DNA of 15,138 nucleotides from a virus (Duplodnaviria; Heunggongvirae; Uroviricota; Caudoviricetes): IMG/VR virus record IMGVR_UViG_3300010259_000015, positions 1 to 15,138 of that record. One strand, given 5' to 3'. Under the pieces are notes generated by a model. It did not search any database. It worked only from the letters and a program-made list of their open reading frames with translations, and was not told the DNA's origin. Made by a program: the position numbers and the translations under genes. Of this stretch, positions 1,888 to 14,800 are shown piece after piece; within the stretch, counting starts at the first letter, position 1, and each line of letters starts with the position of its first letter.

Positions 1888-1934
1888 ATGAATCCAGATA
1901 GCATAACTTTTATATATTGTGCAATCTCACACGC

Positions 1935-2570
1935 ATGAACACTCTCGCAAATATTCAGGAACTCGCGCGCGCACTGCGCAACATGATTCGTACCGGCCTT
2001 GTCGTCGAAACCAACCTTAAAGCCGGTCGCTGCCGTGTGCAGACCGGTGGCATGTGCACTGACTGGCTTCAGTGGCTGACCCATCGTGCCGGACGTTCGC
2101 GCACATGGTGGGCACCTTCCGTGGGGGAACAGGTGCTGATTCTGGCTGTGGGCGGTGAACTCGACACGGCGTTCGTTCTGCCGGGGATTTATTCCGGCGA
2201 TAACCCCGCGCCGTCTGCGTCGGCGGATGCCCTGCATATCCGTTTCCCTGACGGGGCGGTGATTGAGTATGAACCCGAAACCAGTGCACTCACGGTAAGC
2301 GGAATTAAAACGGCCAGCGTGACGGCTTCTGATTCTGTTACTGCCACGGTGCCGGTGGTCATGGTGAAAGCATCAACCCGCATCACCCTGGACACACCGG
2401 AGGTGGTTTGCACCAACAGGCTGATTACCGGCACGCTGGAAGTGCAGAAGGGCGGGACGATGCGCGGCAACATTGAACACACCGGCGGTGAACTCTCATC
2501 AAACGGTAAGGTACTGCATACCCATAAACACCCCGGCGACAGCGGCGGCACAACCGGGAGCCCTCTATGA
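1935..2570 (+). CDS. V: Baseplate assembly protein V (spike)
   Basis: ORF track begins at a TTG (1917), but the ATG at 1935 gives MNTLANIQELARAL... and a 211-aa product, matching P2 gpV; stop overlaps W start (ATGA). Confidence 0.88.
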   Translation: MNTLANIQELARALRNMIRTGLVVETNLKAGRCRVQTGGMCTDWLQWLTHRAGRSRTWWAPSVGEQVLILAVGGELDTAFVLPGIYSGDNPAPSASADALHIRFPDGAVIEYEPETSALTVSGIKTASVTASDSVTATVPVVMVKASTRITLDTPEVVCTNRLITGTLEVQKGGTMRGNIEHTGGELSSNGKVLHTHKHPGDSGGTTGSPL

Positions 2571-4360: not shown

Positions 4361-6358
4361 ATGAGCACAAAATTCAGAACCGTTATCACCACTGCCGGTG
4401 CAGCAAAGCTGGCAGCGGCAACCGCGCCGGGAGGGCGGAAGGTCAACATTACCACGATGGCCGTCGGGGATGGCGGTGGTAAATTGCTTGTCCCGGATGC
4501 CGGACAGACCGGGCTTATCCATGAAGTCTGGCGACATGCGCTGAACAAAATCAGCCAGGACAAACGAAACAGTAATTATATTATCGCAGAGCTGGTTATT
4601 CCGCCGGAGGTGGGCGGTTTCTGGATGCGAGAGCTTGGCCTGTACGATGATGCGGGAACGTTAATTGCCGTGGCGAACATGGCCGAAAGTTATAAACCTG
4701 CCCTTGCCGAAGGCTCAGGGCGTTCGCAGACCTGCCGCATGGTCATCATCGTCAGCAGTGTGGCCTCAGTGGAGCTGACCATTGACACCACAACGGTGAT
4801 GGCGACGCAGGATTACGTTGATGACAAAATTGCAGAGCATGAACAGTCACGACGTCACCCGGACGCCTCGCTGACCGCAAAAGGTTTTACTCAGTTAAGC
4901 AATGCGACCAACAGCACGTCTGAAACACTGGCCGCAACGCCGAAAGCGGTAAAGGCCGCCTATGACCTGGCTAACGGGAAATATACTGCGCAGGATGCCA
5001 CCACCGCGCGAAAAGGTCTTGTCCAGCTCAGTAGTGCCACCAACAGCACGTCTGAAACGCTCGCCGCAACACCAAAAGCGGTAAAGGCCGCGTATGACCT
5101 TGCTAACGGGAAATACACTGCACAGGACGCCACCACAGCGCGAAAAGGTCTTGTCCAGCTCAGTAGCGTCACCAACAGCGATTCTGAAACGCTTGCGGCA
5201 ACGCCAAAGGCGGTAAAGGTCGCGTATGACCTTGCTAACGGGAAATACACTGCACAGGATGCCACCACAGCGCGAAAAGGGCTTGTTCAGCTCAGTAGCG
5301 CCACCAACAGTGATTCGGAAACGCTGGCCGCAACACCAAAAGCGGTGAAGTCTGCCTATGACAATGCTGAAAAACGTCTTCAGAAAGATCAGAACGGTGC
5401 GGATATCCCTGATAAAAGATTATTCCTGCGCAATATTGGAGCAACAAATTCAACAACCATGTCTTTTAGTGGTGGTACAGGATGGTTCAGGCTGGCAACT
5501 GTAACCATGCCACAGGCCAGTTCCGTGGTTTACATAAGCCTGATTGGTGGTGCTGGATATAATGTTAACTCCCCTATGCAGGCTGGTATATCTGAACTTG
5601 TTCTTCGTGCGGGAAATGGAAATCCAAAAGGTCTTACTGGTGCGTTATGGCGACGGACCTCGGTTGGATTTACTAATTTTGCATGGGTGAATACATCCGG
5701 TGATACCTATGACATTTATGTAGAAATAGGTAATTACGCCACAGGTGTTAATATCCAGTGGGATTATTCAAAGGATGCAACTGTACAAATTCATACATCA
5801 CCAACTTATACAGCGAATAAACCAACAGGCCTGACAGATGGAACTGTATATGTAATTTACAGTTCGCACATTAAACCGACTGCTGCTGATGTTGGGGCGT
5901 TGTCGTTATCTGGAGGTCAATTGAATGGTGCACTGGGCATTGGAACATCCAGTGCTCTTGGCGGTAACTCGATTGTTTTGGGTGATAATGACACGGGCTT
6001 TAAACAAAATGGCGACGGTAATCTGGATGTTTATGCTAATAACGTTCATGTTATGCGCTTTGTCTCCGGTAGCATTCAAAGTAATAAAACCATAAATATT
6101 ACGGGGCGTGTTAATCCCACAGATTACGGTAACTTTGATTCCCGCTATGTCCGGGATGTCCGGCTTGGTGGTGCTGCCACATACAAACCTGCGAACAATG
6201 GCATGACATGGACACATCAGGCACCGTCCGGGTGTGTATATTCCGGCATTATTGTTCAGGATACCGGCTCAAACTCTGCCGATAACATTGGTGGCGTATA
6301 TTACAGACCGGTTCAGAAATACATTAACGGGACATGGTATAACGTGGCGCAGGTATAA
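4361..6358 (+). CDS. H: Tail fibre protein H (mosaic; conserved N-terminal anchor, repeat-containing shaft, variable distal domain, conserved C-terminal tip)
   Basis: 665-aa ORF with SD GAGGAAG upstream; N-terminus MSTKFRTVITTAGAAKLAAATAPGG... and C-terminus ...YRPVQKYINGTWYNVAQV match the P2 H termini as recalled; followed 3 nt later by G. Confidence 0.9.
   Translation: MSTKFRTVITTAGAAKLAAATAPGGRKVNITTMAVGDGGGKLLVPDAGQTGLIHEVWRHALNKISQDKRNSNYIIAELVIPPEVGGFWMRELGLYDDAGTLIAVANMAESYKPALAEGSGRSQTCRMVIIVSSVASVELTIDTTTVMATQDYVDDKIAEHEQSRRHPDASLTAKGFTQLSNATNSTSETLAATPKAVKAAYDLANGKYTAQDATTARKGLVQLSSATNSTSETLAATPKAVKAAYDLANGKYTAQDATTARKGLVQLSSVTNSDSETLAATPKAVKVAYDLANGKYTAQDATTARKGLVQLSSATNSDSETLAATPKAVKSAYDNAEKRLQKDQNGADIPDKRLFLRNIGATNSTTMSFSGGTGWFRLATVTMPQASSVVYISLIGGAGYNVNSPMQAGISELVLRAGNGNPKGLTGALWRRTSVGFTNFAWVNTSGDTYDIYVEIGNYATGVNIQWDYSKDATVQIHTSPTYTANKPTGLTDGTVYVIYSSHIKPTAADVGALSLSGGQLNGALGIGTSSALGGNSIVLGDNDTGFKQNGDGNLDVYANNVHVMRFVSGSIQSNKTINITGRVNPTDYGNFDSRYVRDVRLGGAATYKPANNGMTWTHQAPSGCVYSGIIVQDTGSNSADNIGGVYYRPVQKYINGTWYNVAQV
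4880..5365 (+). repeat. In-frame 132-bp (44-aa) tandem repeat, about 3.6 copies, within H shaft region
   Basis: Repeat starts at 4880, 5012, 5144 and 5276 (period exactly 132 nt); peptide unit KGLVQLSSATNSTSETLAATPKAVKAAYDLANGKYTAQDATTAR with a few substitutions per copy; fourth copy diverges after about 30 aa. Confidence 0.9.
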
Positions 6359-6361
6359 TTT

Positions 6362-6889
6362 ATGCAGCATTTGATAAATATAACGGTGGGTAATCCAAAA
6401 ACGGTTGAACAATATCAATTGACAAAGGGCTTTGATGTTGTCTGGTTTTTTTCAGAAGATGGTAAGAACTGGTACGAAGAACAAAAGTATTTTGCTGATG
6501 ACACGATAAAAATAGCGTACGACAAAGATAATATTATCCGCTATGTGGAAAAGGATGTGACAGCTATCAGACCAGATGGATTAAGTGTTGTTGAAGTGCC
6601 GGATATTACCGCTAACCGACGGGCGGACATTTCAGGGAACTGGATGTTTAAAGACGGCACAGTGATTAAACGAATTTATACGGCGGAGGAATTGCAGCAG
6701 CAGGCAGAAAATCGGAAAGCCAGACTTCTTGCAGATGCTGAATCCGTGATTTTGCCGCTGGAGCGTGCTGTCAGGCTGAATATGGCAACAGATGAGGAAC
6801 ACAGCCGACTGGAGGCTTGGGAACGCTATAGCGTTCTGGTCAGTCGTGTGGATCCTGCAAATCCTGAATGGCCGGAAATGCCGCAATAA
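6362..6889 (+). CDS. G: Tail fibre assembly chaperone G
   Basis: 175-aa ORF immediately after H; C-terminus ...[13 protein letters not shown] is typical of P2-type tail fibre assembly proteins. Confidence 0.88.
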
Positions 6890-7267
6890 GTTGTATGAGC
6901 TCTGGTGGGAGCTTACATATCTATGGCGCAGAGTAAAGCCTAATCTGACAGTTCGCTCTGTGCCAGAAGCAGACGTTGCGAACATCGAGGTGTATTAATC
7001 AACGGGGAGCTGGTCACAACTATTCGGTTTATAAACATTTTTTTCGCTTTTCTGCATTAGAGACTATTGCATTAACTGGCTAAACTATGGATGATTATTG
7101 GTGTTAGGTTGCCAATGAATTAAGGATTAACTTCTGAACTCTCTGGTTAATCTAAAAGGAATATATGTGTATCATTTTACTTTGGCTGATAATTGAGAAC
7201 AGGCTGTCAACCTATAAATTAGAAAGGTTAAATTAACTGTGTTTTCTTGGATTTACTAAGGATGAAT

Positions 7268-7888
7268 ATGGCTAAGCCTGAAATTAAATATGACAATCCT
7301 GAATTGGATGTAAATTATGATTATGTCGGAATTGTTGACGGTTTAAGTTGTGACGACAGGAAAGAATTTGGCATCACAACTGAGCTGGGAAATTTGCTGA
7401 GAAGTGCGCAATTACCTGTAAAAGAGGCGCTAGTAAATACTAAGCAGGAGCTTCTTGATGCGTTAAGCACATTCCTTAAAGATGCTATGAATGGTCAGCG
7501 TTTCATGCTCCATTTTGTAGCTCATGGAAACGAAAAAGGAATACAAATTGGTACTGACTTTGTGACTTGGGATATTTTACGTCCGCATTTGCAAGAAATC
7601 AATGTAGCAACGGAACGAACACTACTTTTGAATATGAGTACGTGTAAAGGTCTTCATGGAGTTAAGATTGTCGGTGGGAATGGTGAGTATCCTTTTTTTG
7701 GTTTAATTGGTGCGAAAGATGATTTATATGTGATTGATGCGCTAAATGCAAATAAAATAATGTATTGCAAGTGGCTTGATAACCTACCAGTTCAAAAGAT
7801 TGTTCCCGAGACAAATGCGGAACTTGGTAAGGACGTTTTGTTTAATATTTCATCTGAAGGGTTTAGGAAATTAACTAACCCTGAGTGA
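7268..7888 (+). CDS. AT-rich cargo gene at the G/FI (Z/fun) hotspot: ~206-aa protein with caspase-like (clan CD cysteine peptidase) His/Cys dyad motifs; function unknown, candidate anti-phage/exclusion factor
   Basis: ORF track starts at a TTG (7247); the ATG at 7268 follows an AAGGA Shine-Dalgarno (7257-7261) with a 6-nt spacer (an ATG at 7262 is also possible). Motifs hydrophobic strand + HG (FMLHFVAHGNEKGIQIGTD) and, 40 residues later, hydrophobic strand + C-x-G (TLLLNMSTCKG), resembling caspase SHG...GIxYGTDG and QACxG signatures. Strongly AT-rich island. Confidence 0.7.
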   Translation: MAKPEIKYDNPELDVNYDYVGIVDGLSCDDRKEFGITTELGNLLRSAQLPVKEALVNTKQELLDALSTFLKDAMNGQRFMLHFVAHGNEKGIQIGTDFVTWDILRPHLQEINVATERTLLLNMSTCKGLHGVKIVGGNGEYPFFGLIGAKDDLYVIDALNANKIMYCKWLDNLPVQKIVPETNAELGKDVLFNISSEGFRKLTNPE

Positions 7889-8073
7889 CACTTTTTCTTT
7901 CACTCATAATAATTATCAAATAGTGGATGGATTTGATGGAAATTAAGTACTTAGTCTGGTGGGATGTGTGTAAGATTAACTTCCGCTCCTCGCCCAAAGC
8001 AGACTGTCAGATTTGATAGTGTTTCGGCTATGTAAATAGTCAGTCGGAAAATGAGTTTGTACAAATCAGGACA

Positions 8074-8100
8074 GGCGGGCGAATTGCCCGCCTTTTCTTT
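8074..8100 (+). terminator. Rho-independent terminator downstream of the cargo gene / V-operon
   Basis: GC-rich hairpin GGCGGGC-gaatt-GCCCGCC (8074-8092) followed by the T-run TTTTCTTT (8093-8100). Confidence 0.8.
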
Positions 8101-8103
8101 ATC

Positions 8104-8124
8104 TGTTGTTTCATCCCCTGACCA
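8104..8124 (+). promoter_or_regulatory. Candidate Ogr-dependent late promoter element upstream of FI (TGTTGT-N11-ACCA)
   Basis: Same TGTTGT hexamer as upstream of V, followed 11 nt later by ACCA; sits just after the terminator and about 75-95 bp upstream of the FI start; SD GGAG at 8186-8189. Confidence 0.4.
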
Positions 8125-8197
8125 GCCAGGACAAATAGCATCTCATGCCCTGCACAACTGAAAATACCACTCACCCATTAACCACGGAGTTAAACGG

Positions 8198-14500: not shown

Positions 14501-14581
14501 TGTTTTTATTTTATCTATTTGTTTTATAAGGATAAATTAACTAAAATGGCACCATCAACAAAACCGGAAGAGGTGCTCGCG

Positions 14582-14800
14582 ATGTTTCATTGTCCTTTAT
14601 GCCAGCATGCCGCACATGCGCGTACAAGCCGCTATATCACTGACACGACAAAAGAGCGTTATCACCAGTGCCAGAACGTGAATTGCAGCGCCACGTTCAT
14701 CACTTATGAGTCGGTACAGCGATACATCGTGAAGCCGGGAGAAGTCCACGCCGTGAGGCCGCACCCGTTGCCGTCAGGGCAGCAAATTATGTGGATGTAA
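14582..14800 (+). CDS. ogr: Late-gene transcriptional activator Ogr (zinc-finger)
   Basis: ORF track begins at a TTG (14519), but the ATG at 14582 gives MFHCPLCQHAAHARTSRY...CQNVNCSATF... of 72 aa with CxxC...CxxxxC zinc-binding cysteines, matching P2 Ogr in size and N-terminus as recalled. Confidence 0.88.
   Translation: MFHCPLCQHAAHARTSRYITDTTKERYHQCQNVNCSATFITYESVQRYIVKPGEVHAVRPHPLPSGQQIMWM

Follow-up and report, generated by a model that had tools for sequence, protein, structure and literature searches.

The tandem repeat in the tail fiber gene H of the analyzed window (the whole DNA stretch of 15,138 nt) is an ordinary, already catalogued feature. Its units belong to a curated and named family, PF03406, and numerous phage and E. 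coli records already contain an annotated copy of this four-unit gene. With a probability of about 85%, the array forms the proximal shaft of a trimeric gpH fiber and represents an old, shared four-motif allele in which whole units are occasionally gained or lost.

Gene H, its repeat array and its neighborhood

The features of the gene and of its immediate surroundings are given below, with the basis of each assignment in brackets.

4361..6358, plus strand: tail fiber gene H of a P2-like (Peduovirus) prophage, 665 aa (ORF, Pfam, alignment with P2 gpH)
4361..4813, plus strand: conserved N-terminal domain, aa 1-151 (PF12571 Phage_tail_fib, E = 2.6e-58, profile positions 1-150 of 150)
4880..5011, plus strand: repeat unit 1, aa 174-217, KGFTQLSNATNSTSETLAATPKAVKAAYDLANGKYTAQDATTAR (repeat finders, PF03406)
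5012..5143, plus strand: repeat unit 2, aa 218-261 (repeat finders, PF03406)
5144..5275, plus strand: repeat unit 3, aa 262-305 (repeat finders, PF03406)
5276..5362, plus strand: truncated repeat unit 4, aa 306-334, ending ...AATPKAVKSAYD (Tandem Repeats Finder, PF03406)
4960..5268, minus strand: antisense ORF, 102 aa, GTG start, best read as a by-product of the repeat and not as a gene (ORF list)
5363..5452, plus strand: linker NAEKRLQKDQNGADIPDKRLFLRNIGATNS, similar to residues ~145-175 of the Mu fiber protein S (phmmer against PDB chains)
5453..6355, plus strand: variable distal, putatively receptor-binding part with the conserved C-terminal end ...YINGTWYNVAQV (comparison with P2 and Mu)
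6362..6889, plus strand: tail fiber assembly chaperone gene G (PF02413 Caudo_TAP, E = 1.8e-34)

The protein encoded by gene H matched both PF12571 and PF03406 in the Pfam scan, and its residues 1-242 showed 95% identity with the reference P2 gpH in the protein alignment. According to the Pfam matches, H is preceded by R, S, V, J, and I and followed by G and then the sheath gene FI; V, J, I, G, and FI thus occur in the sequence expected for a P2-type phage, and the annotation of the E. coli prophage JNE120442 gives an identical V-to-FI order around H. In the best-matching complete E. coli genomes, 1998-bp genes annotated as 'tail fiber protein' are 97% identical to H over its full length. The N-terminal domain, which is expected to attach the fiber to the baseplate, shows 98-99% conservation across 80 viral contigs, which are the best of 424 IMG/VR matches.

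The only array that the Tandem Repeats Finder program detected in the 15 kb of the window lies at positions 4907-5362, with a period of 132 nt, 3.5 copies, 89% matches, zero indels, and a score of 695. An ungapped repeat search placed the repeat at positions 4879-5368 with the same spacing of 132 nt. The array lies in frame within the 665-codon ORF of H, whose first unit begins at codon 174, and translation gives an intact reading frame across it. It comprises three full 132-bp (44-aa) units and an 87-bp truncated fourth one (4880-5362), in which the repeat is kept for 29 codons only and is followed by a different sequence. Both repeat finders and the translation of the ORF therefore agree with the sequence-only reading on the location of the array, its in-frame period of 132 bp (44 aa), the number of units, and the divergence of the last one; the assignment to the shaft of the tail fiber protein gpH, made in the same reading, is likewise in line with the PF12571 and PF03406 matches and the I-H-G context.

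The match of H with PF03406 (Phage_fiber_2) was highly significant (261.9 bits with a gathering cutoff of 22, E = 1.4e-79) and covered four stretches, the best of which corresponded to profile positions 1-41 of 42. Every unit scored above the threshold of the family, and the matches are arranged in tandem with a period of 44 aa from residue 174. According to PMC3368898, the repeat, also designated Pf2, forms part of the side tail fibers of phages, and little was known of its structure and function at the time of that publication.

The antisense ORF at 4960..5268, which had been considered artefactual from the sequence, does exist and retains that interpretation. Its translation is itself a 44-residue repeat, and the length free of stop codons rises with the copy number: the longest antisense stop-free stretch in homologues was 84 codons with two copies, 130 with three, 174-175 in most of those with four, and 218 with five. 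In units 1 and 4, C plus TA at the junction of Ala GCC and Tyr TAT closes the frame; units 2 and 3 encode that alanine by GCG, which is the sole reason why the frame stays open there. Across homologues, the reported frame spans 64 to 154 codons. Judging by these properties, the ORF is most plausibly a side effect of the repeat. A codon-position argument against it was dropped, as its third positions coincide with those of H.

Several observations concern the genes around H. A 261-aa ORF (1066-1851) is located on the minus strand, opposite to the flanking tail genes S and V. It had no Pfam or PADLOC match, matched phrog_2407 ('unknown function') over its full length, and shared 89-99% identity with genes annotated as 'hypothetical protein' in 21 records of Peduovirus. 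In JNE120442, which is the closest E. coli prophage, this ORF is absent and V directly follows S; by appearance, the ORF is accessory cargo carried in a variable slot. Another variable cargo slot is the 1.3-kb stretch from G to FI (6890-8197). In the window it contains a 213-aa ORF (7247-7888, plus strand, TTG start) with no Pfam or PADLOC match and only a weak match to phrog_38219; in JNE120442, the place of this ORF is taken by genes for a DUF2971 protein and a hypothetical protein. The mechanical ORF of the baseplate gene V (1917-2570, plus strand) has a TTG start at position 1917 and overlaps a 128-aa minus-strand ORF (1851-2237) without a family match. Since V is annotated as 211 aa in JNE120442, translation of V probably starts further downstream, and the ORF on the minus strand is likely to be spurious. 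After the tail gene D, a 93-aa ORF (14519-14800, plus strand) gave a weak PADLOC match to PD-T7-4 (E = 0.0025, 15 bits), which is probably due to chance. In P2, this position is presumably occupied by the ogr-type late activator.

Copy number of the repeat among relatives

The number of motif copies was determined in 80 IMG/VR loci and six GenBank phages using an HMM built from the units of the window itself. The IMG/VR loci, mostly E. coli prophages, share the N-terminal domain at 98-99% identity, and the frequencies are approximate because these loci are the best 80 of 424 matches. Four copies, as in the window, is the modal count among these close H proteins: it was found in 52 of 81 complete proteins (44 of 71 distinct sequences), followed by two copies in 18 (16 distinct), five in 9 (9 distinct), and three in 2 (2 distinct). 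A wider sample comprised representatives of 22 species from other taxa, most of them Enterobacteriaceae (Citrobacter, Salmonella, Buttiauxella, Scandinavium, E. albertii, and others). Here, one copy was present in seven loci, two in eight, three in six, and four in one, and all 22 arrays have a 44-residue period and start at residue 173 or 174. The overall range is thus from one to five copies, and the variability anticipated by the sequence-only reading is confirmed both in close Peduovirus H proteins (2-5) and elsewhere (1-4). A literature search found no published work specifically on the copy number of the gpH repeat.

The order of units in homologues was established by assigning the first 87 nt of each homologue unit to the most similar unit of the window. 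Whole units are gained and lost within the distal class of the window (DKRLFLRNIGATNST), which also occurs in the loci L007, L029, L054, and others with 96.6-99.5% DNA identity over the last 990 nt. With this distal part, three units are present in L054 (621 aa, pattern 1-2-4), four in the window and in E. coli JNE120442, and five in L007, L029, and E. coli A5 (709 aa), where the pattern is 1-2-3'-3-4 or 1-2-2-3-4. In L029 (IMGVR_UViG_2740892210_000016), which is 99.5% identical to H of the window over the last 990 nt, unit 2 is duplicated and its two copies differ by 1 nt; this duplication is truly recent, but it occurred in another genome. Another locus, L037, contains two neighboring units with identical cores. 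Neighboring units of this kind were found in the sample only in L029 and L037, and not in the window.

These patterns suggest that units are added or removed by unequal homologous recombination or replication slippage. Because the 132-bp direct repeats are a multiple of three bases, such events would occasionally change the array by whole units in frame and could produce the population polymorphism of one to five copies. A different kind of event was observed in E. coli PCN033 (L112, NZ_CP006632.1, 4367684-4369392), whose H homologue is annotated as frameshifted. Its array is 289 bp shorter than that of the window owing to an out-of-frame deletion starting inside the second unit, so in decaying prophages the repeat can also undergo deletions that inactivate the gene.

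The allele of the window might instead have arisen recently from a five-copy allele of the same receptor-binding class by deletion of one unit. Among the IMG/VR loci with this distal class, those with five copies (8 loci) are more numerous than those with four, and the three-copy pattern 1-2-4 of L054 shows that deletions happen. However, complete E. coli genomes favor the four-copy form (at least 19 versus 3), and since the extra unit in most five-copy alleles is diverged (86-94%), both the four-copy and the five-copy states are old. The extra unit of L029, in turn, is clearly a fresh duplication. A recent contraction is therefore considered improbable, and an old four-unit allele remains the preferred reading.

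Divergence and positional orthology of the units

Near-identity of the units at the DNA level, which the sequence-only reading had stated, does not hold, as they are only 76-92% identical. The pairwise DNA identity was 85.6% for units 1 and 2, 81.1% for units 1 and 3, and 91.7% for units 2 and 3, which are the closest pair in the window, while unit 4 showed 76-85% identity with the others; this corresponds to 11-25 differences per 132 bp. Since most of the changes affect the third base of a codon (between units 1 and 2, 13 codon changes are synonymous and 3 non-synonymous), near-identity holds for the peptides, not for the DNA. The prevalence of synonymous differences is counted here as support for purifying selection, which would keep the array at the protein level.

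The pattern 1-2-3-4 was found in 42 loci, in which the 87-nt unit cores showed 89-100% identity with the unit at the same position in the window; for the counterparts of unit 1, the identity was 92-100%. The maximum identity between different units of the window over the same cores was 88.5%. Same-position matches are thus closer than pairs within the window, which makes the units positional orthologs across many phages. Judging from these comparisons, the four-unit array is older than the divergence of the alleles sharing it, and it would represent an old allele common to most P2-like phages of E. coli and Yersinia. No recent event is visible in the array of the window.

The recent expansion proposed by the sequence-only reading, which would be specific to this lineage and would have started from a P2-like ancestor with two copies through slipped-strand or unequal recombination, is already largely refuted and is regarded as very unlikely. 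It would agree with the two copies of the reference P2 and with the occurrence of whole-unit duplications in the gene family, as in L029 and L037 with their identical neighboring cores. Nevertheless, the units of the window are 8-24% apart, each of them finds a closer match at the same position in many other phages, including the 42 other loci with the order 1-2-3-4, and four copies is the modal state. In addition, the highest within-array core identity in the window (88.5%) is close to the homologue median of 87.4%, and the difference from P2 is tied to a different downstream module, which is considered below. An origin of the copy number in short-read assembly, by collapse or expansion of the repeat, is very unlikely: tandem 132-bp repeats are open to mis-assembly, but 11-25 differences per unit suffice to anchor reads, an H gene of equal length (1998 bp) recurs in at least 19 complete and independent genomes of E. 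coli, the one genome among them whose unit order was read (JNE120442) also shows 1-2-3-4, and the reading frame of H is intact.

Role of the array and comparison with known fibers

In the preferred reading, that of an old shaft allele, the array lies after the N-terminal domain, which probably attaches the fiber to the baseplate, and before a distal, presumably receptor-binding part that can be exchanged. As it occupies this position and belongs to a tail fiber repeat family, it most likely forms part of a trimeric shaft, with each unit representing a fixed increment; a role as a length-setting spacer is suggested by the position in the protein and by general knowledge of fibers. H is a putative trimeric fiber that may bind its receptor via the C-terminal part; its C-terminal end is similar in sequence to those of Mu S and P2 H. 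When the whole protein and two units were compared with the PDB, the only similar solved chains were those of Mu gpS, which holds one motif. In the Mu cryo-EM paper, only the N-terminus of gp49 was modelled, and the C-terminal crystal structure was fitted. An AlphaFold2 model of residues 150-380 (monomer, single sequence) was all helix with a mean pLDDT of 45 and a pTM of 0.29, which is too poor to interpret.

Since the same distal class exists with three, four, and five units, it is conceivable, though rather doubtful, that the number of 44-aa units is a selected, tunable spacer set independently of the receptor-binding module. If so, the reach of the fiber could match the thickness of the host O-antigen or capsule, and gain or loss of units would serve as a rapid adaptation of host range or adsorption rate in P2-like phages. 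The array is of little importance beyond correct annotation, with a modest use for the engineering of P2-type fibers or tailocin fibers: the shaft tolerates one to five units in strict 44-residue steps, one receptor-binding module is found naturally with three, four, or five of them, and the end of the array (…AATPKAVK) is a natural junction for swapping distal modules.

This junction is evident from the homologues, whose arrays all end shortly past the AATPKAVK core and continue into differing downstream modules. Besides the module of the window, others are joined at the same point after the array, e.g., ...AVKSAYDNAEKRLQKDQNGADIP... and ...AVKAANDNANGRVP..., and all two-copy alleles in the sample carry the P2-type continuation. 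The core at the end of the array thus coincides with the point where differing distal modules join.

The gpH of the reference P2 (AF063097, AAD03286.1) has the same genome position (I-H-G) as H of the window and shares with it the N-terminal domain, the first 1.6 repeat units, and the C-terminal end YINGTWYNVAQV. The statement in the sequence-only reading that P2 has fewer copies proved correct, the alignment giving two motif copies in P2 gpH versus four here. P2 gpH departs from H of the window inside repeat 2, after ...AATPKAVK, and continues with TVMDETNKKAPLNSPALTG... into a middle region of ~250 aa that is unrelated to H; 37% identity resumes in the last ~170 residues, which is the only relatedness between the distal parts of the two proteins. 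Since P2 departs inside repeat 2 into an unrelated region, the difference between the two phages is a module exchange at the end of the array together with a different repeat number, and not simple slippage; P2 has only two copies because the AATPKAVK core at the end of its array coincides with the distal-module junction. The conclusion that the fiber of the window is longer than that of P2 is unsupported, because both proteins are almost equal in length (669 aa in P2 and 665 aa in the window) and P2 carries a different middle module.

Four-unit arrays with the order 1-2-3-4, like that of the window, are found in Escherichia phage 9W, Peduovirus P22H4, 'Peduovirus P2' OU784750, and Yersinia phage vB_YpM_46. 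These isolates share the N-terminal domain with H of the window and differ in carrying other distal receptor-binding modules, so that their H proteins are 736-764 aa long. E. coli prophages carry such four-copy alleles as well (e.g., JNE120442, WP_286356062.1). The allele of JNE120442 is 97% identical to the whole 1998-bp H of the window; the four-copy alleles of E. coli prophages differ from H of the window only by ~3% point substitutions.

Similarity to the fiber protein S of phage Mu (gp49; PDB 5YVQ, 9KI1, and 8JU3) was detected by phmmer between residues 293-364 of H and residues 104-175 of 5yvq_A, 9ki1, and 8ju3_A (domain E = 9e-18). Mu S contains one motif followed by the same linker as in H (...DNA..RL.KD.NGADIP.K.LF..N.G), and its C-terminal end is related to that of H, which also resembles a 'short tail fiber' chain in the PDB. 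It differs from H in its single motif, its other N-terminus, and its invertible distal segment. The sequence NAEKRLQKDQNGADIPDKRLFLRNIG directly after the array (5363-5452) closely resembles Mu S residues ~145-175, which we take to lie near the constant/variable junction of the invertible Mu fiber gene. The linker is the only likeness to Mu S that bears on an invertible system. The ORF list of the window contains no invertase-sized ORF beside H and G, and no invertible arrangement of the Mu/P1 type (Sc/Sv, Gin/Cin) was recognized, as ORFs of at least 80 aa between G and FI gave no recombinase Pfam match; the only ORF in this interval, 7247-7888, has no Pfam match at all. Exchange of fiber segments between P2, Mu, and P1 was reportedly described by Haggård-Ljungquist et al. 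in 1992 and by Sandmeier in 1994. The Mu-like linker fits such exchange, as well as the mosaic structure of the gpH of phage L-413C (PMC7460101).

Beyond the P2-like phages, PF03406 was first noted in the Stf protein of phage lambda and is also present in E. coli StfR and in the collagen-like fiber proteins of EHEC prophages. The units of H share with this family the motif and the length of ~42 residues. In contrast to H, the lambda-type Stf and EPcl proteins combine PF03406 with PF08400 N-termini and with collagen or coiled-coil segments.
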